The notes under the pieces: generated by a model
Databases searched by the model: none
Told to the model about the DNA's origin: nothing
Seen by the model: the letters and a program-made list of their open reading frames with translations, nothing else
Translations under genes and position numbers: made by a program
In this document: piece after piece, positions 6,501 to 47,442 of the stretch
Position numbering within the stretch: position 1 is the first letter of the stretch
How the letters are laid out: each line of letters begins with the position of its first letter
Virus record (IMG/VR): IMGVR_UViG_2909298281_000005
Length of the DNA stretch: 47,442 nucleotides
DNA from: a virus
Taxonomy: Duplodnaviria > Heunggongvirae > Uroviricota > Caudoviricetes
Direction: 5' to 3' (one strand)

Positions 6501-6997
6501 GCCGACGACGCGGCCTGTCCGGCTGACGTGCTGGCTGCGCGTGCTGAGCCTGCAGCATCAGTCGCATGGGTTGCCGCCTCACGGGCTGATGTGCCGGCAT
6601 CGCTGGCTGACTTCTTCGCGGCTGCCGTGTTCTGTGCCACCGCGGACGCGTTACGCGCCACCTCTTCCACCATCAGTTCAAAACGGCGCAGTGCCTCAGG
6701 ACGGGCATCATCCTCCGTCATGGCACCGAGAAAATCATTCAGCGTACCGGGTCGGGAATCTTCATACACGGTGATGGTCCCGGCATGTGACGGCGGGAAT
6801 CCCTCCACCAACAGAATAACGCTGTACTGCCCGTACTCAACGTCCATGCTGTAACGCCCGGCTTCATCCGGATTTTCTGAGGCCAGCGTGTTCACCACCA
6901 CCGTGGTGCTGTTACGTTTTGCTTTCAGCTGGATTGTGCAGTTCTGTACCGGTTTTCCTGTGCCGTCTTTCAGTACACCTGAAATCTTTACTGCCAT
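3599..6997 (-). CDS. stf: side tail fibre protein Stf (mosaic; Ala/Ser-rich repeat region; C-terminal His-rich HxH repeats)
   Basis: Long ORF; N-terminus [17 protein letters not shown]... and C-terminus ...[31 protein letters not shown] match lambda Stf as recalled; start taken at ATG 6997 (track start 7003 is GTG two codons upstream); GGGGTG 5 nt upstream. Confidence 0.85.
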
Positions 6998-7008
6998 ATT
7001 CACCCCAC

Positions 7009-7034
7009 AAAAAAGCCCGCCTGAACCGGCGGGC
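7009..7034 (-). terminator. rho-independent terminator downstream of lom
   Basis: Minus strand reads GCCCGCC-loop-GGCGGGC followed by TTTTTT. Confidence 0.6.
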
Positions 7035-7061
7035 TGTCATAACACTGTGTTACCTGGCTAA

Positions 7062-7661
7062 TCAGAATTTATAACCGACACCCACGATGAAACCGTCAGT
7101 GCGCCAGTCGCCACTGCCGGAACCTTCATAAGCGACATCAATGGCCACGGACTCGGTCGGGTTAAACTGCACGCCAGCCCCCCACGCCAGAGACGTGTTG
7201 CTGTGGCGACCGTCATCACTTCCGGTCAGCACATCGTGCGTTTTCCCCGTATTGTCGGTCACCTGCAGATAATCCCCGGAGAAAGTCGACACACGGCTGT
7301 AAGCCACACCCGCCATCGCATACGCGCTGAACCATTCATTCACGCGCACAGACGGCCCCGCCATCACGCTGAACCAGCGGTTACGCACGGAATCTTCATG
7401 CCAGCGGGTATCGCTGTAATGCGTTTTTTGCTCATCTTCAGCGTTGGCATAACTGAATGACGTAATCAGCCCCAGCGTGTCCGTAAACTCATAACGGTAT
7501 TTCACGTTAATCCCGTTCAGATTATCGCTGCCGGGAGCGTTCGTACGGGCATGAAGATACCCTGCGCTCAGTGTGGCCTGCTGCTCAGACGCCCATGCAG
7601 GCGCACCGGATACGGCCAGACAGATGGCTGCGGACAAAATGGCTGCACAAACTTTACGCAT
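7062..7661 (-). CDS. lom: outer membrane protein Lom (Ail/Lom/OmpX family)
   Basis: 199-aa ORF with signal peptide and C-terminal ...VGYKF beta-barrel end; position between J and stf as in lambda. Confidence 0.8.
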
Positions 7662-7728: not shown

Positions 7729-10700
7729 TCAGCTGATACTGATGCCTGCGGTGGCTTTCTTCATCACCACAACCAGCAAATCGCTGATACTTGCTGTGGG
7801 ATACCAGTCATTTACCAGCCATGCTGACACCGAAAACTCCAGCGTCATGTGGCCGTGACCAGCTGGCATATCAATAACACCACTGTAAATCAGCGTATTA
7901 TCCAGCGCGGTACGGTTATAAATTTCAGCACCATTTTTCTTCACTATCAGGCGGCATGACGAATAAATATCGTTATTCTCCCGCTCATGTTTAGCGCCGC
8001 AGAATGCCACCGCCGGAATAACAATTTGCCTGTCAAAAGGCTGATCGTCATAAATCCTGACGGTAATGGTCCCTGATGGCCACCGCTCCGGTGCCCGGGA
8101 GTCCCGCGGGAAAGCCTTACCCACTGTTTTGACAATATCGCCTTCAATCTGGTTGGCTGACAGTTTCCCTTTAATCTGACAGTTCTCATTTATCGTAACG
8201 TTGTTGAGCGTCCCGGAGTTCGCATTCACACTGCCACTGATATCTGCATTTTTAGCGGTCAGCTTTCCGTCCGGTGTCAGGGAAAATGCAGGAGGATTAC
8301 CGCCGCTGGTAATGGTGGGAGCCGTCAGATATTTCAGGAACACTTCATTCATGAATATCTGATCACCCTGACCAACAAACATCGGTTTTGTGTTGCCATT
8401 TGCAGGATTAATCATCGCAATCCTGTCTGCCGCCAGCAGCACCTGACTCTGCATTCCTGCTGGCGTATTCTCAATACCGGCACCGATACCCGCAATATAA
8501 AGGCGTCCGTCCTGCATCTGCTGCAGTTTCACGGCCCACATGCTGTTCAGGTTATTATTTGTATCAACCTGAACTTTCTGTATCTGCTGGATTGCCGCAC
8601 TCTGATTTTCCAGTTTTTTATTGACGGTCTGCGTGATTTCATTGCTGACATTCGTAATGGACGTCCTGATTTCAGCCAGGTCCGGCGCAAGCTGACCGTT
8701 ATCAATCTGCGTCCACAGCTCCTGGGCCAGATGTGTTTTCCCGATTTCTCCTTTGAAAAAATCCAGGTAACCTTCCGCATCATCGCTCGCCCGACCGACA
8801 GCCTCCACGAATGCCGATTTGCCAACGGTGTTCACACTGCGAACGTAAAAATAATAATCATGGCCCGGTTTGATATTGATACTGGCGGCTATCCAGTACA
8901 GCGCCGTGCCAAGATAGCGGGCTGTGGTTTCAACCTGCCTGATATCGGTAATCCGCTTTTCCGAGAACCAGAACTCAAACTGTACCGTCGGGTCATAAAC
9001 CGCAAGATGCGGCGTGGCGGTTATCTGAAAATAGCCCGGCGTCAGCTCAATCTGTGACGGCGCTGCCGGTGCGGCAATCCGGAACGATACCGACGCCGGA
9101 TCGCCCTGCTGCCCCCACGCATTTACCGCCCGGACTGTCAGCCTGTAGTTCCCCAGCGCCAGCTGTGTGAAGCGGTATGTGGTTTCCGTCGTCCGGGCCG
9201 TGCTGACCAGCCGCTCACTGCCGTCATCCGCTGTTACGGTCAGACGGAGCAGGAAGCTCACGCCCTTCACCACCTTCGGCGTGTCCCAGCGCGCCAGCAC
9301 CTGATATTCCCCGCTGTCTGCGGTGACTTCGGCGGTCAGGTGCTGCACCGCTGGCGGCGTGACACCATTCACCGTGCCGCTCTGGTCGCCGTCAAAGTGC
9401 GCCCCGTTATCCACGATGGCCTCTTTTTCAGGTACATGCTGCACGGCGGTGATGGCATACGTGCCGTCGTCGTTCTCACGGATACTCACGCAGCGGAACA
9501 GGCGCTGGCGCAGCGTCGGCAGCTTCAGTCCCCACACGCTGTATCCGGCAACGCCGTCAGGAACACGGCTCACTTTCACCTTCACGCCGTCAGTGACGGA
9601 CTGGACCTCCACGCTCACCGGATTCCCCTGCCCGTCAACCAGGCTTATCAGCGTGGTGCCGGAGGATGGCAGCGTGATTTCACGGTCGAGCGTCAGAGTC
9701 CGGGTCTGGCTGTTCACCGCCAGCACGCGACCGCCGGTGCTGATACCGGCATAGTCATCATCGCAGATTTCAATAACATCGCCCGGCACATGGCGAAGCC
9801 CTTCTGCGCCCACGCTGAAATCCACGGTCTGCGTTTCCAGCAGTTCCGTTTTAATCAGCCACAGCCCGGCGCGGTGCGCCTGCCCCTGGCTGGTACAGCC
9901 AAAGGCATCCATCTTCATAACATTACGACCGTAACGGGCAATGGACTGCGTATCTTCAACAAGCTCTGTCGCCGTCTCCCAGCCGTTATCCGGGTCAATC
10001 CAGTTCACCTCAACGGCATTATGACGGTCCTTCAGGGCACTGAAGCTGTAGCGGAACGGCGCGCCATCATCCGGCATCACCACATTACTGCGGTTATAGG
10101 TCCACACCTTATCCGACGGTCGGTCCTGCACGAACGTCAGCGTCTGCCCGTTCCATACCGGCATACAGCGCATCGCCGAGCAGAAATCACTGAGAACATC
10201 CCACGCCTTGCGCTGTGTGGTCAGCCAGGCATTACAGGTGATGCGCGGCTCCGTGCCACCAAAGCCATCCGGCACCGACTGGTCGCAATTCTGGCCGATG
10301 ACATACAGCGCCCATTTGTCCACATCCGCCGCACCGAGACGCTTCCCCATGCCGTAGCGCGGATGGGTCAGCATATCCCACAGACACCAGGCCATGTTGT
10401 TGCTGTATGCTGGCTTAAACGTTCCGTCCCAGATACCGCTGTATTGCCGCGTCTGCGGGTTATAGTTCGACGGCACCTGCAGAATGCGCCCGCGAAGATG
10501 ATAATTACGGCTCACCTGCTGGCTGCCGAACTGTTCCGAGTCCACCTGCACGCCGACCAGTGCCGTGTTCGGGTAGCACTGTTTCACATCGATGATTTCG
10601 GTGTATGACGACCAGAGCGTTTTGTTCTGCAGCTGGTCTGTGGTGCTGTCCGGCGTCATTCTGCGCATCCGGATATTAAACGGGCGCGGCGGCAGGTTAT

Positions 10701-26469: not shown

Positions 26470-27147
26470 ATGTCCATCATTTTTAATGGACACTATCGTA
26501 TGAAACACCGGACCTGGATCACTGAAGCTTTACGTCTTCACTTTGAAGAACATTTACCCCGGGTTGTGGCCGGGCGTCGCCTGGGTGTACCAAAATCAAC
26601 AGTTTGTAGTATGTTCGTGCGCTTTCGGAGAGCTGGCCTTTCGTGGCCTTTGCCCGCAGGCATGTCGGAGCAGGAACTTGATGCCTGCCTTTACGGACAA
26701 TTTTCCACGGTACCAGTCGTACGTCCTGAAAGCACCGTTATATCCGAAGCCCCCGTGGTAAAAAAACGTCCCCGGCGGCCCAACTTCCCTTATGAGTTTA
26801 AAATCGCCTTAGTGGAGCAGTCACTGCAGCCCGGAGCCTGTGTGGCGCAGATCGCCCGGGAAAACGGAATCAACGATAACCTGCTCTTCAACTGGCGCCA
26901 TCAATACCGGAAAGGTGGCCTGCTGCCTTCCGGAAAAAATATGCCGGCACTGCTTCCCGTGACGTTAACGCCGGAGCCGGATAATAAAATCCCGGCCCCC
27001 GCACAGGAACCAGAGCAGATAAATACACCGTCCGACAGTCTGTGTTGTGAGCTGGTTCTGCCGGCCGGAACTCTCAGGCTTAAAGGTAAACTGACGCCGG
27101 CGTTATTACAGACACTTATCCGCGAAATAAAAGGGAGCAGCCACTGA
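26470..27147 (+). CDS. IS66 accessory protein (orf1/TnpA-like); true start may be internal
   Basis: First ORF of the IS; HTH-like segments. Confidence 0.65.
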   Translation: MSIIFNGHYRMKHRTWITEALRLHFEEHLPRVVAGRRLGVPKSTVCSMFVRFRRAGLSWPLPAGMSEQELDACLYGQFSTVPVVRPESTVISEAPVVKKRPRRPNFPYEFKIALVEQSLQPGACVAQIARENGINDNLLFNWRHQYRKGGLLPSGKNMPALLPVTLTPEPDNKIPAPAQEPEQINTPSDSLCCELVLPAGTLRLKGKLTPALLQTLIREIKGSSH

Positions 27148-27494
27148 TGATATCTCTCCCTGCAGGTTCGCGTATCTGGCTGGTTGCAGGTATCACCGAT
27201 ATGCGAAATGGCTTTAACGGCCTGGCATCAAAAGTTCAGAACGTCCTGAAGGATGACCCGTTCTCCGGACACCTGTTCATCTTCCGCGGACGCCGGGGTG
27301 ACCAGATAAAAGTGTTGTGGGCTGACAGTGACGGACTGTGCCTCTTCACCAAACGCCTGGAGCGGGGCCGCTTCGTCTGGCCAGTCACCCGTGACGGCAA
27401 GGTGCACCTTACTCCGGCTCAGTTATCCATGCTTCTTGAAGGTATCAACTGGAAGCACCCGAAACGAACGGAACGCGCTGGAATCCGCATATAA
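27147..27494 (+). CDS. IS66 orf2 (TnpB-like)
   Basis: 115-aa ORF MISLPAGSRIWLVAGITDMRNGFNGL... typical of IS66 orf2. Confidence 0.85.
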   Translation: MISLPAGSRIWLVAGITDMRNGFNGLASKVQNVLKDDPFSGHLFIFRGRRGDQIKVLWADSDGLCLFTKRLERGRFVWPVTRDGKVHLTPAQLSMLLEGINWKHPKRTERAGIRI

Positions 27495-27513
27495 CCCGTT
27501 GTAAAGTGAGGAT

Positions 27514-29085
27514 ATGGACACCTCACTTGCTCATGAGAACGCCCGCCTGCGGGCACTGTTGCAGACGCAACAGGACACCATCCGCCAGATGGCTGAATAC
27601 AACCGCCTGCTCTCACAGCGGGTGGCGGCTTATGCTTCCGAAATCAACCGGCTGAAGGCGCTGGTTGCGAAACTGCAACGTATGCAGTTCGGTAAAAGCT
27701 CAGAAAAACTTCGTGCAAAAACCGAACGACAGATACAGGAAGCACAGGAGCGAATCAGCGCACTTCAGGAAGAAATGGCGGAAACGCTGGGTGAGCAATA
27801 TGACCCGGTACTGCCATCCGCCCTGCGCCAGTCTTCAGCCCGTAAACCGTTACCGGCCTCACTTCCCCGTGAAACCCGGGTTATCCGGCCGGAAGAGGAA
27901 TGCTGTCCTGCCTGTGGTGGTGAACTCAGTTCTCTGGGATGTGATGTGTCAGAGCAACTGGAGCTTATCAGCAGCGCCTTTAAGGTTATCGAAACACAAC
28001 GTCCGAAACTGGCCTGTTGCCGGTGCGACCATATCGTGCAGGCACCAGTACCTTCAAAACCCATTGCACGCAGTTATGCCGGAGCGGGGCTTCTTGCCCA
28101 TGTTGTCAGCGGGAAATATGCAGACCATCTGCCGTTATACCGCCAGTCAGAAATATACCGTCGTCAGGGAGTGGAGCTGAGCCGTGCCACACTGGGGCGC
28201 TGGACAGGTGCTGTTGCTGAACTGCTGGAGCCGCTGTATGACGTCCTGCGCCAGTATGTGCTGATGCCCGGTAAAGTCCATGCTGATGATATCCCCGTCC
28301 CGGTCCAGGAGCCGGGCAGCGGTAAAACCCGGACAGCCCGGCTGTGGGTCTACGTCCGTGATGACCGTAACGCCGGTTCACAGATGCCCCCGGCGGTCTG
28401 GTTCGCGTACAGTCCGGACCGGAAAGGTATCCATCCACAAAATCACCTGGCCGGTTACAGCGGTGTGCTTCAGGCCGATGCTTACGGTGGTTACCGGGCG
28501 TTATACGAATCCGGCAGAATAACGGAAGCCGCGTGTATGGCTCATGCCCGGAGAAAAATCCACGATGTGCATGCAAGAGCGCCCACCTACATCACCACGG
28601 AAGCCCTGCAGCGTATCGGTGAACTGTATGCCATCGAGGCAGAGGTCCGGGGCTGTTCAGCAGAACAGCGTCTGGCGGCAAGAAAAGCCAGAGCCGCGCC
28701 ACTGATGCAGTCACTGTATGACTGGATACAGCAACAGATGAAAACACTGTCGCGTCACTCAGATACGGCAAAAGCGTTCGCATACCTGCTGAAACAGTGG
28801 GATGCACTGAACGTGTACTGCAGTAATGGCTGGGTGGAAATCGACAACAACATCGCAGAGAACGCCTTACGGGGAGTGGCCGTAGGCCGGAAAAACTGGA
28901 TGTTCGCGGGTTCCGACAGCGGTGGTGAACATGCGGCGGTGTTGTACTCGCTGATCGGCACATGCCGTCTGAACAATGTGGAGCCAGAAAAGTGGCTGCG
29001 TTACGTCATTGAACATATCCAGGACTGGCCGGCAAACCGGGTACGCGATCTGTTGCCCTGGAAAGTTGATCTGAGCTCTCAGTAA
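27514..29085 (+). CDS. IS66 family transposase (orf3)
   Basis: 523-aa ORF with N-terminal coiled-coil, CPACGG zinc-finger-like motif and DDE-type core. Confidence 0.9.
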
Positions 29086-29448: not shown

Positions 29449-30141
29449 ATGTCTAGAGAAGGCTCGTTGGACTTATTGCAAGAAGTTGAAGAAAGTCTTG
29501 GCATAATGAGACAGACACAGCATATCAAGCCTGTAAAAGTCAAAGCTATTTTGGAAAACTTACGAAGTTCCTTAGAGTATCTCGCTAATGATACCTATGA
29601 TAAATATATTTCTCCACGCAGTAATGATGAGCGCCCCAAAATATATTTCCCTTACGGAAAAAAAGAGTTTATTGATAAATTTTTCTCAAAGACGCTAAAA
29701 ATAAACCCACCATCATCTTCTCCATTATATAAAATTTTTACTTCTATACAGGATTATCACACTGGCGAATCTTGGTTGGAAATGATGTGTAATCTCACTA
29801 ATGAAGTAAAGCACAGACAACCAATCCCCTTAAGAGAAGAGAGTTCTGTTAAAGACCTAAGTGTGAGCGTAGATGGTTTTGGTTTAATCACAGCAGGAAG
29901 CTCAGCAAAAATTCTCTTTAAAAACAACCACATCAATGACAAAAAATTAGAAGACTTTACTTTCGAAAATGGGAAATTACAAAGAAGTGGTAATGGTGTA
30001 CCTTTAAACATAGTCATTACCGAAGAGAAAAAAATAAGATTCCATGGGAATGACCATGAAGTAATTCCTTTCATTGAATCATGCCTTATTAAAATCAGAA
30101 TTTTTATTATCGAAGCCTATAATGAGTTAGATAAGATTTGA
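29449..30141 (+). CDS. hypothetical protein, AT-rich orphan gene opposite to the late operon
   Basis: 230-aa ORF with AAGGAG 8 nt upstream of ATG and AT-rich promoter-like upstream region; no recognisable domain or TM segment. Confidence 0.6.
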   Translation: MSREGSLDLLQEVEESLGIMRQTQHIKPVKVKAILENLRSSLEYLANDTYDKYISPRSNDERPKIYFPYGKKEFIDKFFSKTLKINPPSSSPLYKIFTSIQDYHTGESWLEMMCNLTNEVKHRQPIPLREESSVKDLSVSVDGFGLITAGSSAKILFKNNHINDKKLEDFTFENGKLQRSGNGVPLNIVITEEKKIRFHGNDHEVIPFIESCLIKIRIFIIEAYNELDKI

Positions 30142-32077: not shown

Positions 32078-32293
32078 TTACTCTCCCCGTGCAGCCTTAC
32101 GCTTGTCTTCTTTAATCTTGAAATAAAGGTTTGTCAGGTACGTCAGCAGGCCAAATACCAGGCTACCCAGCACACCTATTGCTGCCCACTGTGAGGGCGT
32201 GACTTTATCGAGCAGCTGTAAAAACCAGTAGCCAGCACTGCCTGCGGAGGTGCCGTAGGCAATGCCTGTTGAAATTTTGTCCATGGATTTCAT
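32078..32293 (-). CDS. pinholin (phage 21 S-like), dual-start MKSM
   Basis: 71 aa from [31 protein letters not shown]...; closely resembles S21 as recalled. Confidence 0.75.
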
Positions 32294-32397
32294 AGCCTCA
32301 CCTCCGCACGGAACGGATGGCATAGTTATTATGTGTAGGCTTCCAGACACATCAATCAGAGCCTTAATTGATATATATGCTGGAGACGATGCAATAT

Positions 32398-32418
32398 AAA
32401 AAGCTCGCCGTAGCGAGC
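32398..32418 (-). terminator. rho-independent terminator downstream of lipoprotein genes
   Basis: Minus strand AGCTCGC-TACG-GCGAGCT followed by TTTTT. Confidence 0.55.
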
Positions 32419-32544
32419 TAATAAAATGTATTTCTCTGATATTATGTTTATTTGTATTAGCTCAGACTTGACATCACAGGTTTCGTATATAGAACATCAT
32501 CAAATCTGTCAGTTTGCTATGAATGAGATATAGTAATTGAAGAG

Positions 32545-32940
32545 CTAACCTCGCATGTCAAAGCCAGATTTCTGAAAATCTCTGTAGACTTCCGGATTGT
32601 TGAAGGCCGGAAATTTGGCTTTATGAGCTGCGGACTTTATCGCTTCGCAATAGGCTTTATCACCGTTACTGGTAGATATTTTTAACGCCGTGCCATCCTG
32701 AGAGAATTCCATATGCAACCTGCATATTTTCCCTTTCCAGTTATGCGGCTCATCAAGTTTGGCATTAATTGCAGCTCTGATTCCCCGCGCTTGCGCCCCC
32801 CATTCATCCTGATCATCCCAGCGTCCTGAACTGCAACTACCTGTAGCAGTAGTTTTGTGGCAATCTGAAGGGTGTAAAGGTGTGCATCCCGCAACAAAAC
32901 CGACCCAAAAAGTCAACATAACGATTTTCTTTAATCCCAC
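32545..32940 (-). CDS. lipoprotein with TolA C-terminal-like domain (paralog 1)
   Basis: Signal peptide MGLKKIVMLTFWVGFVAGC (lipobox); C-terminus ...KICRLHMEFSQDGTALKISTSNGDKAYCEAIKSAAHKAKFPAF..PEVYRDFQKSGFD; GTG start with GGAG upstream. Confidence 0.6.
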   Translation of the reverse strand: MGLKKIVMLTFWVGFVAGCTPLHPSDCHKTTATGSCSSGRWDDQDEWGAQARGIRAAINAKLDEPHNWKGKICRLHMEFSQDGTALKISTSNGDKAYCEAIKSAAHKAKFPAFNNPEVYRDFQKSGFDMRG

Positions 32941-33090
32941 TTCTTGCTCCTCAATCCATTAAAATCTCAGCAATAGTAGTTGTTACGTCCGCCACTGGCT
33001 CAGAGCTGACTATCCGCTAAATTTAGCTCAGTGCCGTAGTTGTGTCAGAACAAACCTAAGCCGAAACCGTTTATTACAAAACAATAAATA

Positions 33091-33519
33091 TCAGGGTTTA
33101 AAATCCAGCACCCCATTTTGAAATACTTTATATACTTCCGGCGAAGGGGGGGCAGGTATATCAGCATTCTTTATCGCATTCATCGCTTCACGACATAAAT
33201 CGAGGTCTCCACTTTCTCTTTTAACCTCCAGTAGAAGGCCATTCGGGGCCATATGCATTCTCAGTGTACACTCTTTTCCTGAATACTTACTCGCATCCCC
33301 GAACTGTTTTTCGATGGCGCTCTTGATTTGATGGGCATACAGACGGATATCCTCACTAACATCAGAAGTACGTTCAGATGAACTCACATACTGTGTCTCT
33401 ATTGCTTTATCGGAGTAATATGATGTACGGTCATGATAATTTGTCGATACAGCATCAGTGCACCCGATAATAATCCCACTAATAATCAACGTAAGAATTG
33501 ATGCGCTACGAAAACCCAT
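33091..33519 (-). CDS. lipoprotein with TolA C-terminal (domain III)-like domain (paralog 2)
   Basis: Signal peptide ...ILTLIISGIIIGC; C-terminus YAHQIKSAIEKQFGDASKYSGKECTLRMHMAPNGLLLEVKRESGDLDLCREAMNAIKNADIPAPPSPEVYKVFQNGVLDFKP parallels E. coli TolA C-terminus as recalled. Confidence 0.7.
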   Translation of the reverse strand: MGFRSASILTLIISGIIIGCTDAVSTNYHDRTSYYSDKAIETQYVSSSERTSDVSEDIRLYAHQIKSAIEKQFGDASKYSGKECTLRMHMAPNGLLLEVKRESGDLDLCREAMNAIKNADIPAPPSPEVYKVFQNGVLDFKP

Positions 33520-34052
33520 TTTTCCTCACATATGTCATATAGTAAAGGATTATATATACCGTTGTTTTGGACGCTCAAACAGCGAATCAGATCAAATAAA
33601 ACGCACATTTGTTAACATTTACACAAAGTCTGCGTGGGATATTCTGAAAGAATATCCATAATGTGGAGAGAATCTATTGAAGTGCATGGTGCCGGGTGCC
33701 TCCCGGTGAATTCAGTACCAGCACCTGAATCCGCGATTATCCCATATACCTACTCGCTGATTGCCCCTCCGCACAGGGGGATTCACCATGCCAGTTTCTT
33801 TTAACAAACTCCCCGCAAACCAGAGAACAGTCAACCGCCTGAATTGTGAAGTATTTAAAAATTTCTCCCGCTAACTGATACCCGGCTAACAGTCTGGCGT
33901 TTTCTTTTTCAGCAACGGGAAAGCAACAACCACCACACCCGCCACCAGCACACCGTCAGCCAGCACTGACATTATCCGGCTGCTGCAATGCCATTCACAA
34001 AAACAGTAAGCAATCACTTTTTACCGTAACAGGTGATAATCCAGATATGTAT

Positions 34053-34379
34053 CTACCCCAGATGAGTAATCCGAAGTTCATCCATACCACAGGTCCTGGC
34101 TATTCTGTTGTACTCCTGAACAAGAGCAAATAATTCTGAATTAGCAACCATGAACTCATCGCAAACCCTCTGTATAGCATCACTATTCAGAATAATAACG
34201 TCTCTTCCCGAAAGACGATCAGGAGCACAGAACAAAACTGTCAAACGGCTGAAGGCCTTTGCTCGTGCTGCATTGACTATATCAATACGCTGCCTAAGGA
34301 TGAAACACCCCGACGCCTCATCAATATTCACTCTACCCACACCATATGAATGATAAATATTTAATGCTGAAAAAACCAT
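34053..34379 (-). CDS. hypothetical protein (about 108 aa) between tRNAs and lipoprotein genes
   Basis: ORF only; weak RBS; no recognised domain. Confidence 0.35.
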   Translation of the reverse strand: MVFSALNIYHSYGVGRVNIDEASGCFILRQRIDIVNAARAKAFSRLTVLFCAPDRLSGRDVIILNSDAIQRVCDEFMVANSELFALVQEYNRIARTCGMDELRITHLG

Positions 34380-34516
34380 TAGACCGTATAACAAACACTC
34401 AATCAATACTTAACAGAACTTTTATTTTTGACAAACATATAATATTTTCAACAATATCCTGAGCCAGGTATATTCCAGTATAAGGCTCTGCCGGAAGGAA
34501 TCTGGAAGAATGAATA

Positions 34517-34593
34517 TGGCGCGCTGTACTGGATTCGAACCAGTGACCGATTGCTTAGAAGGCAATTGCTCTGTCCGGCTGAGCTAACAACGC
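34517..34593 (-). tRNA. tRNA-Arg (anticodon UCU)
   Basis: Cloverleaf readable: acceptor GCGTTGT/ACAGCGC, anticodon loop CTTCTAA, T-arm GGTTCGAATCC, 3-prime CCA encoded. Confidence 0.8.
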
Positions 34594-34701: not shown

Positions 34702-34777
34702 TGGTGGCCCTTGCTGGATTTGAACCAGCGACCTGGCGATTATGAGTCGCTCGCTCTCACCACTGAGCTAAAGGACC
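34702..34777 (-). tRNA. tRNA with anticodon CAU (Ile2/lysidine type or Met), ileX/ileZ-like
   Basis: Acceptor GGTCCTT/AAGGGCC, anticodon loop CTCATAA, T-arm GGTTCAAATCC, 3-prime CCA encoded; resembles E. coli ileX as recalled. Confidence 0.75.
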
Positions 34778-34816: not shown

Positions 34817-34838
34817 AAAAAACCCGCTCGGTGGCGGG
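34817..34838 (-). terminator. tR'-like terminator downstream of the late promoter
   Basis: Minus strand CCCGC-CACCGA-GCGGG followed by TTTTTT, about 45-60 nt downstream of the promoter-like element. Confidence 0.5.
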
Positions 34839-34887
34839 TTGTAGAAACTCTTCTAACGTCAGGTATAAAAAGCCCATCGTTATGACG

Positions 34888-34920: not shown

Positions 34921-35742
34921 TTACCTAGTTACCTTTTTTAACTGCCGCTCAGCCCATGCTTCTTCAATATCAAACCGGGTCACCAGCGCATCATAGAATT
35001 TCTTAACTGTTTTTTCCCATGACGCGCGTGTTATCTGGTTTGTCACCTCGCATATAGCATTAAATGCCTCCGTTGATGGTAGTCTTTCATAGCCACGACC
35101 ACCACAACGCTGGCAGTCTCTGATAACAGGCATACCACGTTTTACCGACTCTTCACGGTGAATGGCGACACCACGCCCACGGCAATCCTTACAGACGGTG
35201 GAAACCTCACCCTTTCCGCCACACTCCGGACAGGCAACTTTTACCACCTCCCTGACTTTTTTCCATTCTTCCCAGTAAGACGGATACACACCTTTCGTAC
35301 ACTTTGCCCATACCGGCGGCTTACCATCCGGATACTGGACCTTGTTTGTAAAAACTACGCTTTCAATAAATTTTTCCCCATAGCAACAAGGGCACTGCTT
35401 TTTACTCGCTGCGCTGCGGGCATAATCCTCAAAAGCGTACGAAGCCATAATGCGCATCACTAACGGTTTTATTTCTGCCGGAAGTTTTCTCAACGCCGCC
35501 ACACGATCGCACCGACTGAGTGCATAATCTGCCAGTAATTCTGTTGCCCGCGCCCTGTCATTCATACTGATGCCCATTTTCCCCAGGAACGCAGAAAACC
35601 CCATCTCAGCCCGATTCTGTGTCATGCCCTGCGCGGCCATCACATCAGTGATACTCAGCGCATCTTTTGAAGTTGAGGCCGATGCATCGGTCAGGCAAGG
35701 GGATTTTGGGGAGTAGTATTTCGGTAAATCTTCCAGTTTCAT
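34921..35742 (-). CDS. late gene antiterminator Q-like protein (zinc-binding CxxC repeats)
   Basis: 273-aa ORF directly upstream of pR'/tR'-like unit, tRNAs and lysis genes; CPCC.G, CPECGGKG, CKDCRGRG, CQRCGGRG motifs; Qin QuuQ-family suspected. Confidence 0.55.
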   Translation of the reverse strand: MKLEDLPKYYSPKSPCLTDASASTSKDALSITDVMAAQGMTQNRAEMGFSAFLGKMGISMNDRARATELLADYALSRCDRVAALRKLPAEIKPLVMRIMASYAFEDYARSAASKKQCPCCYGEKFIESVVFTNKVQYPDGKPPVWAKCTKGVYPSYWEEWKKVREVVKVACPECGGKGEVSTVCKDCRGRGVAIHREESVKRGMPVIRDCQRCGGRGYERLPSTEAFNAICEVTNQITRASWEKTVKKFYDALVTRFDIEEAWAERQLKKVTR

Positions 35743-38887: not shown

Positions 38888-39582
38888 ATGTTAGAACCAC
38901 CAAAGAGTTATAATGAAATGTTGCCTATGCTCCATAAGGCGACTTTTATTACTACATTTATATTTTACCTATCATTAGTCATTTATGGCTACATGCCATT
39001 GGTTGGCATTAATGCCAAGTATATCCCCCCGTTAAAGACTACGAGGAATTTATTAAATGGATATTAACCTTTGGCATATTACCAATTGCATCTTCAGTTT
39101 TTTGGTCAGTAATTAGTGGAGCTTTAGATCTACATAATAATGTAGCAAAAATTATTGGAATAAGGAAGATGTGGGATAGTCATTTAATTATTAAACCATT
39201 AGCAAAAATTGCAGGCGTTACGAGAAAATTAACTACTGATGAATCTCACAAGGTAATGAGTAAACTGTATTACCCAGAAGTTAAAGAGTTAAAAGACAAA
39301 CATTACGTTGAACTTTTCTGGAACAAAGTTTATTACTTTTGGGTTTTCTTTGAACATACAGTAATCGCATTTGTTACTATTTTAATAATAAGTATCGCCA
39401 AATTAACAAATATATTCTCTGTTACTGGCTCTTTAATTAATCTTTGGTTGTGGATTATTTCTCTTGTCGCATTTGACTTCCTTATTTTCATAGCATCAGT
39501 TAAACCAAGAACAGAAAGCCAAGTAAGACAAATACCTGATAGCAAAATAAAAGAATTCTTTAACAATAACAATATTTTTTAA
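38888..39582 (+). CDS. predicted 4-TM membrane protein, reading frame broken at a C6 run (39025-39030); appears as two track ORFs
   Basis: Track ORFs 38876..39067 and 39169..39582 are in adjacent frames; the second frame is open and hydrophobic from 39013; adding one C restores about 231 aa; GGAGAG upstream of ATG 38888. Confidence 0.5.
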
Positions 39583-39594
39583 ACGAGGTTGATT

Positions 39595-40248
39595 TTGAAT
39601 TACAAAATAAATGGAATAAACATACGTTCAGAAAATGCAGCGAAACCGCACACTATGCCATCTAACTATCTCTGTAAACAGATTGAAAGCACTAATAAAA
39701 ATGGCAATGCCCTTGATTTTGGATGTGGAAAACTTAGATATTCAGAACAATTAGTAAATAAATTTGAAACTGTGACATTTTTAGATTCCAGAAGACAACT
39801 AGAAAGAGTGCAAATTATCAGAGGTGTACAAACCACGATTCCAGATTACGTGATAAATAACTATAAGAATGCTAATATTGTTTCTTATGAAAATATAGAT
39901 AAAATAACAAATCATTATGATTTCATACTTTGCGCAAACGTGCTTTCCGCAATTCCATGTGAATCCACAATTCACAAAGTCCTCAGTGCGATTAGAGAAT
40001 TATTAAAGAGTGATGGTGAAGCACTGATTGTCAATCAATACAAAAGTTCTTATTTCAAGAGGTACGAGAGCGGTATTAAACATTTGCATGGGTATATATA
40101 CCAAAACTCTCGTAATGCTTTCTACTATGGTTTATTAGATGTGGATACTGTAAGTAAAATATGCTCAGATAATAATTTAGAAATAATAAAATCATGGAGC
40201 AAAGCAGGTAGTTCATATGTGGTTGTTGGTAAACATATACATATTTAG
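39595..40248 (+). CDS. class I SAM-dependent methyltransferase (substrate unknown)
   Basis: Motif I-like LDFGCGKLRYS near N-terminus, downstream acidic/hydrophobic motifs; starts 7-13 nt after membrane protein stop with GAGG upstream; no DNA-MTase DPPY/NPPY motif seen. Confidence 0.6.
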   Translation: MNYKINGINIRSENAAKPHTMPSNYLCKQIESTNKNGNALDFGCGKLRYSEQLVNKFETVTFLDSRRQLERVQIIRGVQTTIPDYVINNYKNANIVSYENIDKITNHYDFILCANVLSAIPCESTIHKVLSAIRELLKSDGEALIVNQYKSSYFKRYESGIKHLHGYIYQNSRNAFYYGLLDVDTVSKICSDNNLEIIKSWSKAGSSYVVVGKHIHI

Positions 40249-40562
40249 TTTATTTCAACAAATTATTAGAAAGAGTGATTTGCTTGTTAATTATTAGCTC
40301 GGCAGTGCCGGATCAACATGACCCTGCCACTTAGGCCATTGCCGGTTTACCTACTTTTGTAAGGTTCAGCATGAAGTTTTTATATACTCTTCCTAATATC
40401 AATAGTGATGCTCGCTTATGTTAGCTGCTTCTTGTACATAGTAGCCTTCTCCGACAGTACTGCAATGAGCGGAGAGTAAAAGTCGATAAACAATAAGGAG
40501 GTTCACAATAAATATTTCTCGGTGAAACTTTCAAAGCATTCTCTGTTTTGCTAAATCGACAA

Positions 40563-41545
40563 TTATAAATCAACAACATTTAGTGTTATATCAATATTAT
40601 TTAGCCTTGCAATCTCTGATGAATCACTTGCTATTTTAGCTTTTAATTTATCAATATTAATCATATCTTCATGGCTTATATAAACCATATCACCTTGGTT
40701 AACTTTAGATTTGTTCACTATGGCTTGAATAACAGACAAATCATCCATTACACCTCTCATAAATTTCACCATGCTTTGATCTTTGAAGTCAGATATCGAT
40801 TTTGAACGTTGCTTACGTTGAATTGTTCCATTACACCTCTCATAAATTTCACCATGCTTTGATCTTTGAAGTCAGATATCGATTTTGAACGTTGCTTACG
40901 TTGAATTGTTCCTTTTGTAATTACTTCATTAATTTCTTTTAAACCAGTGAGCATATCAGACAGACTGCCTTCGCAACTCATCCGATGTTTTATTGCATTG
41001 CGATTAATAATATTGAGTATAATTTCGAGTGAATCTTTATCACTCCATGGATGTAATGATGTATAATCATGATGGCGTCGAATGGCGTCAATCATATCCT
41101 GGACCATATCTTCATCTGCTTTATCGCAAAGTTCATTCACGAAATAGCTGGGGTCGATTATTTTACAATAACTTGGAGTTAGGTATCTTGAGGCTTTACA
41201 AAAACCAAAAATATATAAAGTAGAGTATTTATCTTTCAGACTCTCTCCTATTTCATTTGCTTCCTCAAAAGATTCGATAGTTTTTTTAATTTTTGCTGGA
41301 CTTGCATTCGTAGTAACTTGAACTGCTATCATGTTTTTATTATCAGCTAAATCAATGGCGGGAAAATTAACTTTAATCTGATTCATGTTTACCAGTTCAC
41401 CCATTTTCAGCGCGCGAAACATAAAGATGGTCAATGACTCAATTATTCTTTCCATGTCATGAAAGCCTGCCTGTTTGCGTTGCGCGATATAAAGCTGGAG
41501 TAGTGCAATATCACTCTGTAAGTTTCTAATAAGTGGATCAATCAT
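40563..41545 (-). pseudogene. defence-island-like protein (about 300 aa) disrupted by an 83-bp tandem duplication
   Basis: Track ORFs 40766..41545 and 40563..40772 share the duplicated peptide MVKFMRGVM...; N-terminal motif ...NQIKVNFPAIDLADNKNMIAVQVTT... Confidence 0.55.
40745..40912. repeat. perfect tandem duplication, 2 x 83 bp
   Basis: Unit CCATTACACCTCTCATAAATTTCACCATGCTTTGATCTTTGAAGTCAGATATCGATTTTGAACGTTGCTTACGTTGAATTGTT appears twice head-to-tail. Confidence 0.85.
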
Positions 41546-46023: not shown

Positions 46024-46299
46024 GTGGCTTCTGTTTCTATCAGCTGTCCCTCCTGTTCAGCTACTGACGGGGTGGTGCGTAACGGCAAAAGCACCGCCGG
46101 ACATCAGCGCTATCTCTGCTCTCACTGCCGTAAAACATGGCAACTGCAGTTCACTTACACCGCTTCTCAACCCGGTACGCACCAGAAAATCATTGATATG
46201 GCCATGAATGGCGTTGGATGCCGGGCAACTGCCCGCATTATGGGCGTTGGCCTCAACACGATTTTACGTCACTTAAAAAACTCAGGCCGCAGTCGGTAA
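46024..46299 (+). CDS. insA: IS1 InsA
   Basis: [42 protein letters not shown]... Confidence 0.85.
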
Positions 46300-46721
46300 C
46301 CTCGCGCATACAGCCGGGCAGTGACGTCATCGTCTGCGCAGAAATGGACGAACAGTGGGGATACGTCGGGGCTAAATCGCGCCAGCGCTGGCTGTTTTAC
46401 GCGTATGACAGGCTCCGGAAGACGGTTGTTGCGCACGTATTCGGTGAACGCACTATGGCGACGCTGGTGCGTCTTATGAGCCTGCTGTCACCCTTTGACG
46501 TGGTGATATGGATGACGGATGGCTGGCCGCTGTATGAATCCCGCCTGAAGGGAAAGCTGCACGTAATCAGCAAGCGATATACGCAGCGAATTGAGCGGCA
46601 TAACCTGAATCTGAGGCAGCACCTGGCACGGCTGGGACGGAAGTCGCTGTCGTTCTCAAAATCGGTGGAGCTGCATGACAAAGTCATCGGGCATTATCTG
46701 AACATAAAACACTATCAATAA
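46218..46721 (+). CDS. insB: IS1 InsB frame (expressed as InsAB' by -1 frameshift at the A-run TTAAAAAACTC)
   Basis: Track ORF in -1 frame overlapping insA; A6C slippery run visible near 46273-46280. Confidence 0.8.
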
Positions 46722-46736
46722 GTTGGAGTCATTACC

Positions 46737-47049
46737 AAAGGCGTCTATAACGTTAAAAATGTGATTGTTGCCGATCGCATTGATGAACGACTGGAAAAAG
46801 CGAAAGAGAGCGGGGCAGACTGGGCGATTAATAACAGCCAGACACCGCTTGGCGAGATTTTCGCTGAAAAAGGCATCAAGCCGACATTAATTATCGATGC
46901 GGCTTGTCATCCTTCTATCCTGAAAGAGGCCGTAACGCTGGCTTCTCCAGCGGCACGTATTGTATTGATGGGCTTCTCCAGTGAACCGTCTGAAGTGATT
47001 CAGCAAGGAATTACCGGAAAAGAACTCTCTATTTTCTCTTCACGCTTAA
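46737..47049 (+). pseudogene. internal fragment of a Zn-dependent (MDR-type) dehydrogenase gene trapped between two IS1 copies (possibly rspB-like)
   Basis: In-frame from IS1 end to next IS1 end: ...VIVADRIDERLEKAKESGADWAINNSQ...IIDAACHPSILKEAVTLASPAARIVLMGFSSEPSEV...; no start or stop of its own. Confidence 0.55.
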
Positions 47050-47442
47050 GGTAATGACTCCAACTTATTGATAGTGTTTTATGTTCAGATAATGCCCGAT
47101 GACTTTGTCATGCAGCTCCACCGATTTTGAGAACGACAGCGACTTCCGTCCCAGCCGTGCCAGGTGCTGCCTCAGATTCAGGTTATGCCGCTCAATTCGC
47201 TGCGTATATCGCTTGCTGATTACGTGCAGCTTTCCCTTCAGGCGGGATTCATACAGCGGCCAGCCATCCGTCATCCATATCACCACGTCAAAGGGTGACA
47301 GCAGGCTCATAAGACGCACCAGCGTCGCCATAGTGCGTTCACCGAATACGTGCGCAACAACCGTCTTCCGGAGCCTGTCATACGCGTAAAACAGCCAGCG
47401 CTGGCGCGATTTAGCCCCGACGTATCCCCACTGTTCGTCCAT
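47050..47442 (-). mobile_element. second IS1 copy, inverted, truncated by the window edge
   Basis: Starts GGTAATGACTCCAACTTATTGATAGTG (reverse complement of IS1 right end); sequence identical to copy 1 where compared. Confidence 0.85.
47065..47442 (-). CDS. insB: IS1 InsB (partial, runs off window)
   Basis: Track ORF identical in translation to insB of the first copy. Confidence 0.8.

Follow-up and report, generated by a model that had tools for sequence, protein, structure and literature searches.

What use could a prophage have for two small lipoproteins that end in the C-terminal domain of a host envelope protein? The question is raised by two tandem genes, here called A and B, in a 47,442-nucleotide stretch of Caudoviricetes DNA (IMG/VR record IMGVR_UViG_2909298281_000005; the whole stretch is called the window). 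Both lie on the minus strand, gene A at 33519..33091 and gene B at 32940..32545, with a 150-nt spacer between them. A first-pass annotation, made from the letters alone, had read the products as lipoproteins carrying domain III of TolA (TolAIII). We found this domain in both proteins and favour, with a probability of roughly 45%, the reading that A and B are outer-membrane-tethered decoys, which would intercept Tol-dependent colicins and filamentous phages.

Against the Pfam model TolA_C (PF06519; gathering threshold, 25 bits), A scored 82.6 bits (E 2.4e-23) and B 53.5 bits (E 2.9e-14). A phmmer search of the PDB aligned residues 55–142 of A with residues 334–421 of Escherichia coli TolA without a gap and at 59% identity (E 5e-28), and matched B to the same protein at E 5e-9. 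In the AlphaFold2 models, the predicted local distance difference test score was about 90 over the domain in both proteins, and Foldseek placed the A model on 2x9a_B at a root mean square deviation of 0.6 Å (60% identity) and the B model on 3qdp at 1.2 Å (31% identity). Both models contain the TolAIII α/β fold (helix, helix, two strands, helix, helix, C-terminal strand), and the two cysteines that match the TolA C363–C388 disulfide are invariant in alignments spanning A and B types. No significant TolAIII-like fold was returned from the BFVD viral structure library. The domain assignment made at first pass was thus upheld for both genes. The TolA pattern given there (GK.CTLR, AP.G.LL, GD..LC, IP.PPS, VY.VF.N..LDFKP) is reproduced by the alignment of A, and only its description as an almost residue-for-residue match was too strong for 59% identity.

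The rest of TolA is missing. Neither protein has the inner-membrane anchor or the long helical domain II, and the genes sit between Q and the holin gene of a prophage, not in the tolQRA-tolB-pal operon. Of the NCBIfam models for full-length TolA, NF007065 (cutoff 213) is failed by both A (107.8) and B (53.8), and TIGR02794 (cutoff 59.45) is failed by B (46) and passed by A (75.6) through its last 97 residues; the match is limited to the final 80–100 model positions. Because A alone passes TIGR02794, it bears the RefSeq name 'cell envelope integrity protein TolA', which is over-broad. The domain homology is therefore already annotated: the proteins are 'TolA' and 'TolA C-terminal domain-containing protein' in RefSeq, and they are grouped in PHROG 5772 with the label function unknown. 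Their architecture, their spread on mobile elements and their likely function are not described in the texts that were searched.

In both proteins a signal peptide and a disordered N-terminal part (in the AlphaFold2 models) precede the domain. A is a 142-residue prolipoprotein with a signal peptide (residues 1–19), Cys20, a tether (about 21–53) and TolA domain III (54–142) ending in LDFKP; B is a 131-residue prolipoprotein with a signal peptide (1–18), Cys19, a Cys-rich motif (20–48) and a divergent TolA domain III (46–131). The N termini, MGFRSASILTLIISGIIIG-C20 in A and MGLKKIVMLTFWVGFVAG-C19 in B, each combine the three elements by which lipoproteins were recognized: a positive n-region, a hydrophobic h-region and a lipobox of the form [LVI][ASTVI][GAS]C, here IIG-C20 and VAG-C19 as read from the sequence. 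The lipoprotein signals noted at first pass are borne out, and the lipobox pattern is kept among homologues. Both proteins would be lipidated at the lipobox cysteine and, because the +2 residue is Thr and not Asp, they are predicted to be sorted to the outer membrane under the established Lol sorting rules; at +2, the homologues show A, T, S, G or K, and Asp is absent. We therefore describe A and B as predicted copies of TolA domain III alone on a lipid tether.

Gene A starts with ATG, with GAGG 4 nt upstream. For gene B, the 131-residue form starts with GTG, with GAGGAG 6 nt before it, and the PGAP/RefSeq model starts at an internal ATG, is 124 residues long and loses the charged n-region; we prefer the longer form because plasmid homologues of B have an ATG at the position of its start. 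The N-terminal motif of B, C-x-PLHPSxCHKTTATGSCSSGRWDDQDEWG (window 32797-32883, residues 20–48), brings two additional cysteines and is present neither in A nor in TolA. It is conserved across genera, with a ratio of nonsynonymous to synonymous substitution rates (dN/dS) of about 0.1–0.15, and is a putative functional module. An apparent likeness between SSGRWDDQDEWG in B and the colicin TolB box was set aside, since AlphaFold2 packs this segment onto helix 1.

Across lineages that diverge by 12–34% at the protein level, dN/dS (Nei–Gojobori) was 0.23–0.37 for the A domain, 0.35–0.60 for the A tether and 0.07–0.12 for B, the Cys-rich motif included. Values of 0.07–0.37 indicate that A and B are functional genes under purifying selection. 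A gene remnant was rejected on these values, and E. coli tolA was ruled out as a recent source on 59% protein identity and a G+C content of about 42%; some other short lipoproteins resemble the TolA of E. coli more closely (66%) than A does. These results bear on the notion that the proteins have nothing to do with Tol mimicry, either as Bor/TraT-like lipoproteins for serum resistance, adhesion or stress or as a functionless captured tolA 3′ end. Function is labelled unknown in PHROG 5772 and likewise in every library, and the carrier prophage is ridden with insertion sequences, both of which would suit such a role. However, the dN/dS values speak against a remnant, the signal peptides are intact, the disulfide cysteines are invariant and the ligand strand is retained, and we regard this explanation as improbable.

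Two ligand surfaces of TolAIII were compared residue by residue, using the phmmer alignment (A residue = TolA residue − 279). TolB, colicin N and g3p contact the β3 residues L417, D418 and K420 (PMC4339652), and colicin A contacts L375–P380, K368, K379, K396, I378 and L392 (PMC3365938). A is identical to TolA over the β3 strand L417-D418-F419-K420-P421 (LDFKP) and, within the site for colicin A, retains L375, L376, K379 and K396; its substitutions are K368H, D377E, I378V, P380R, L392M and P416V. The β3 strand of B retains only the alternating pattern (GFDMRG), and the substitutions K368E, L375A, K379S, L392K and K396H remove all three cation-π lysines. On these residues, A would closely mimic the host domain on both of its faces, and B would be a divergent mimic. 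The two paralogues, described together at first pass, thus share the domain but not its colicin A contacts.

In the decoy reading, TolA domain III would hang free on a tether of 25–35 residues just beneath the outer membrane and compete with the tip of host TolA. In place of energized TolA, the decoy would be engaged through β-strand addition by g3p N1 of filamentous phages and by the translocation domains of Tol-dependent (group A) colicins and klebicins; import would then stall and the lysogen would be tolerant. A modest level of decoy could block invaders without collapsing Tol–Pal, given the affinities for TolA of about 1 µM for an invader (ColN) but only about 40 µM for TolB (PMC4339652). 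The idea is strengthened by the conservation of the ligand sites in A, by the outer-membrane sorting signal and by a pairing of TolA-C with TonB-C proteins on bacteriocin plasmids, described below. In the work of Levengood-Freyermuth et al. (1993; J Bacteriol 175:222), free periplasmic TolAIII reportedly made wild-type cells tolerant to colicins E1, E2, E3 and A, and not to D. Periplasmic g3p-N1, for its part, produced colicin A resistance and a 4-log fall in phage uptake (PMC10424213).

The arrangement of A and B is the classic layout of a moron. A promoter-like site (TTGAGC-18-TATAAT, 33578..33549, minus strand), matching the consensus at 10 of 12 positions, lies about 30 nt upstream of A, and an intrinsic terminator (32419..32402, minus strand; as a whole 32395..32419) follows B. 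The terminator consists of a 7-bp GC-rich stem, a 4-nt loop and a U-run (AGCTCGC-TACG-GCGAGCT+TTTTTAT; −13 kcal/mol, z −4.0) and stands between the moron and the gene for an S21-type (phage-21-type) pinholin (32293..32078, minus strand). G+C content is 0.41–0.46 across the pair, compared with 0.49–0.55 in the flanks. Promoter-like site, A, B, terminator and pinholin gene together form a mosaic cassette of 1,620 bp (32091..33710, minus strand), which is 99% identical among lambdoid backbones that differ in Q and endolysin. By its terminator, base composition and cassette mobility, the pair can be assigned to a Qin/21-like lambdoid prophage as a moron of two genes. A terminator at this place would be useful if the lysogen transcribes the pair and read-through into the holin gene must be avoided; it would hold moron transcription out of the lysis genes until, late in infection, Q-modified polymerase would read through it. 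The position of the pair between Q/tRNAs and the holin gene, and the terminator of its own, had both been pointed out at first pass and agree with the coordinates and the z-score. Upstream of A and of a 66%-identical A-variant, no conserved promoter was found, the two regions being unrelated on alignment.

The company of a lysis gene would also suit a modulator of Tol–Pal. At the outer membrane, the lipoproteins would then bind the TolB N terminus, or a different partner of TolA, and Pal mobilization would be dampened; the outer membrane would loosen, giving more vesicles in lysogens, or help with rupture and phage release when the pair is massively expressed from pR′, upstream of the lysis genes. 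Travel of the cassette with the pinholin gene at 99% identity, as the first late cargo after Q, fits this role, as do the intact TolB-binding β3 strand of A and the leakage and deoxycholate sensitivity that free periplasmic TolAIII is said to cause. Vesicle regulation through TolB interactions has been proposed in a review (PMC7391070). Yet the holin gene is shielded from the pair by a strong terminator, the TolA–TolB affinity is weak (~40 µM), spanin genes (Rz-like open reading frames (ORFs)) are already present after the lysozyme gene, and homologues occur on plasmids and chromosomes without any lysis context. We consider a Tol–Pal modulator unlikely.

Outside prophages, about 600 plasmids of E. 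coli and Shigella carry B-type genes of 87–88% identity, IncI1 and IncF-type plasmids among them. On the IncI1/B/O plasmid pHUSEC41-1, the gene (7965–8396) lies directly downstream of nikA-nikB, nikB being the relaxase gene; on pO157 (6965–7396), it is flanked by the hok/psiAB leading region and toxB. Klebsiella pneumoniae IncF plasmids encode a TolA_C lipoprotein of 144 residues, paired with a thioredoxin-like gene. About 380 small Klebsiella ColRNAI bacteriocin plasmids carry overlapping genes for a TolA_C lipoprotein (123 residues, ending in APLDFRP) and a TonB_C mini-protein (121 residues, with a signal peptide), divergent from a colicin-like tRNase/immunity/lysis cluster (for example, NZ_CP028801.2, 5099–5832; K. 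pneumoniae bacteriocin plasmids of 10–12 kb). By homology, this pair would reproduce the tip of each of the two machines for colicin import, next to a bacteriocin cluster. In the literature, these ORFs are the subject of a single uncommented sentence on a cloacin-type plasmid (PMC10269471).

The plasmid carriers bear on the choice of target, as the proteins could be aimed mainly at filamentous pilus-specific phages (Ff, If1, IKe) instead of colicins, with the decoy capturing g3p N1 after pilus retraction and blocking the co-receptor step. Pili of conjugative plasmids of the IncI1 and IncF groups attract TolA-dependent filamentous phages; the B-type gene adjoins nikB on the conjugative IncI1/B/O plasmid and is found on IncF-type pO157 and on Klebsiella plasmids as well. 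The closest structural matches include complexes of E. coli TolAIII with g3p of If1 (2x9a) and of M13, and the β3 strand is conserved. On the other hand, the TonB_C partner on bacteriocin plasmids is irrelevant to filamentous phages, neither the small mobilizable ColRNAI plasmids nor the window prophage has annotated pilus genes, and Ff infection is not lethal. That filamentous phages are the main target is therefore doubtful in our judgement.

Among complete E. coli genomes, 771 of 5,426 carry the 1.5-kb region at 99.9% identity. IMG/VR prophage contigs hold three arrangements: A and B followed by the pinholin gene, a lone A-variant (65–68% identity), and a lone B at the prophage end after umuDC-like genes. 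The A type is confined to E. coli and Shigella; the B type occurs also in Citrobacter, Enterobacter, Serratia, Klebsiella and Raoultella, and can be a chromosomal singleton in Enterobacter, Citrobacter and Serratia. An exhaustive HMMER scan returned 333 relatives; among the best 150 of these, 89 are shorter than 200 residues and at least 46 have a lipobox. Some of the short TolAIII lipoproteins are chromosomal singletons flanked by core genes. Together they form a broad enterobacterial family, which is not specific to phages, although only prophage genes were described at first pass, given the B-type genes common on IncI1/pO157 plasmids and the chromosomal singletons. In a lineage named Serratia marcescens in the database (L007, 6957–8736), the B-type gene stands after nrdDG and directly before a GmrSD_N and HEPN pair, a neighbourhood that resembles a defence island.

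Several points weigh against A and B being decoys. The promoter-like site is a weak call, as the AT-rich region yields 11 such sites where 6.5±2.2 are expected. B, lacking K368, K379 and K396 and with L375 and L392 changed, would be unable to copy colicin A binding. A decoy would carry a cost if the deoxycholate sensitivity and periplasmic leakage reportedly caused by free TolAIII (Levengood-Freyermuth 1993) also applied to it. Because short TolAIII lipoproteins, B-type and others, lie between housekeeping genes, a physiological role would fit as well. Isolated phages almost entirely lack the cassette, a tblastn search of 50,697 phage records having found only mEp460_ev081, and PADLOC gave no match for A or B among catalogued defence proteins. 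A full-text literature search turned up no functional study of these proteins, in agreement with the earlier remark that no characterized system of this kind was known. Extended to all carriers, the decoy reading becomes a possible but tentative proposal: prophages and plasmids of Enterobacterales (IncI1/IncF/pO157 plasmids and small bacteriocin plasmids among them) may carry a widespread and so far unrecognized class of immunity-independent tolerance genes. Their products, a tethered TolAIII lipoprotein and a secreted TonB C-terminal mini-protein, would copy the tips of the two envelope energy transducers and serve as broad-spectrum decoys against entire classes of bacteriocins and of phages whose entry depends on Tol or Ton; A and B would be two specificities.

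The wider locus shows how the pair relates to the site at which Stx phages carry their toxin genes. In minus-strand order, Q (35742..34921) is followed by a tR′-like hairpin (34840..34821), two tRNAs (one with a CAT anticodon, 34777..34702, then tRNA-Arg(UCU), 34593..34517), an ORF of 117 residues without a family match (34053-34406), a DUF3927 ORF of 43 residues (33886-34017) and a match to the STnc100 small RNA (Rfam; 33820..33630, 114 bits), which lies just upstream of the promoter-like site of A; beyond A, B, the terminator and the S21-type pinholin gene come DUF1327/YdfR, lysozyme and Rz. In the Stx1 phage 75/02, an STnc100 element (141 bits; L102, 4440–4638) lies between stx1B and nanS-p, beside an AgvB match, which puts the window pair on the nanS-p side of this landmark. 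The 66%-identical A-variant, by comparison, comes right after the tRNAs and before nanS-p, in the exact stx slot. The 'stx position' claimed at first pass thus applies to the variant in the tRNA-to-nanS-p slot, whereas the window pair comes after the STnc100-like element. In the late regions of lambdoid phages, this element seems to be a conserved landmark. The 117-residue and DUF3927 ORFs recur with the present Q type at 98–100% identity, and a 58%-identical relative of the former comes after the A-variant in other prophages.

Elsewhere in the window, an IS66-family element (26470-29085; an HTH_Tnp_1 ORF and a DDE_Tnp_IS66 transposase of 523 residues) interrupts the stretch from the terminase region to the lysis genes and is missing from the prophage of strain CFSAN064035, which is collinear in other respects. 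Two opposed IS1 transposase ORFs occupy the right end of the window (46218-47442), where collinearity with that prophage ends. The window prophage is probably defective. On the opposite strand, between Rz and the terminase genes, an ORF of 230 residues (29449-30141, plus strand) lies in a patch with a G+C content of 0.34 and has no Pfam or PADLOC match; it may be another moron. The early region carries cargo at 39169-41545, including an ORF of 137 residues, a class I SAM methyltransferase (39589..40248) and an SMEK_N-domain protein (40766..41545). The last of these matches the PADLOC candidate defence model Aga_REase-PNTD1-PNTD2 (E 7e-21), and the cargo may accordingly be a defence island.

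If A and B act as decoys, about one-seventh of sequenced E. coli would blunt whole classes of colicins, or filamentous phages, without a specific immunity protein, and genes with this effect would also reside on pO157, on resistance plasmids of the IncI1 group and on the small plasmids common in epidemic K. pneumoniae. This would be relevant to competition among gut strains, to the design of bacteriocin and phage therapeutics, and to phage display and M13-based tools in wild strains.

The closest known relative of A and B is domain III of E. coli TolA itself (PDB 1tol, 2x9a, 3qdp/3qdr and 1s62), with the same Pfam family, fold and disulfide; A is 59–60% identical to it and has the same LDFKP end. 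Unlike TolA, however, A and B lack the TolQR-binding transmembrane anchor and helical domain II and are found on mobile elements, and as they are predicted to be lipid-anchored at the opposite membrane, they would be unable to transduce the proton motive force. The mechanism proposed here is that of laboratory constructs, the periplasmic TolAIII of Levengood-Freyermuth (1993) and TonB C-terminal fragments, in which a free hub domain is said to compete with the energized protein and give colicin tolerance. Those constructs are artificial, soluble and over-expressed, whereas A and B are natural and under selection, are predicted to be tethered by lipid and occur on prophages and plasmids; they would be the natural counterpart of a thirty-year-old laboratory trick. 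The superinfection-exclusion proteins Llp of T5 and Cor of lambdoid phages are likewise small phage-encoded outer-membrane lipoproteins that block the entry of competitors from the periplasmic side, but they bind and plug the receptor FhuA, whereas A and B mimic a domain of a host energy transducer, and no homology between them was detected. Immunity conferred by filamentous-phage g3p uses the same interface (g3p N1 with TolAIII β3) and has the same outcome, colicin and phage tolerance, in reverse: there a phage ligand titrates TolA, and here a TolA copy would titrate the ligands. Finally, morons of the lambdoid Q–S region (stxAB, nanS-p, bor and lom) share an independent unit of promoter (putative in A and B) and terminator, low G+C content, mosaic mobility and late cargo slot; their cargo is a toxin, an esterase or a serum-resistance factor, whereas that of A and B is a mimic of a host protein. 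In kind, A and B may be entry-blocking lipoproteins or morons that would act through mimicry of a host domain.

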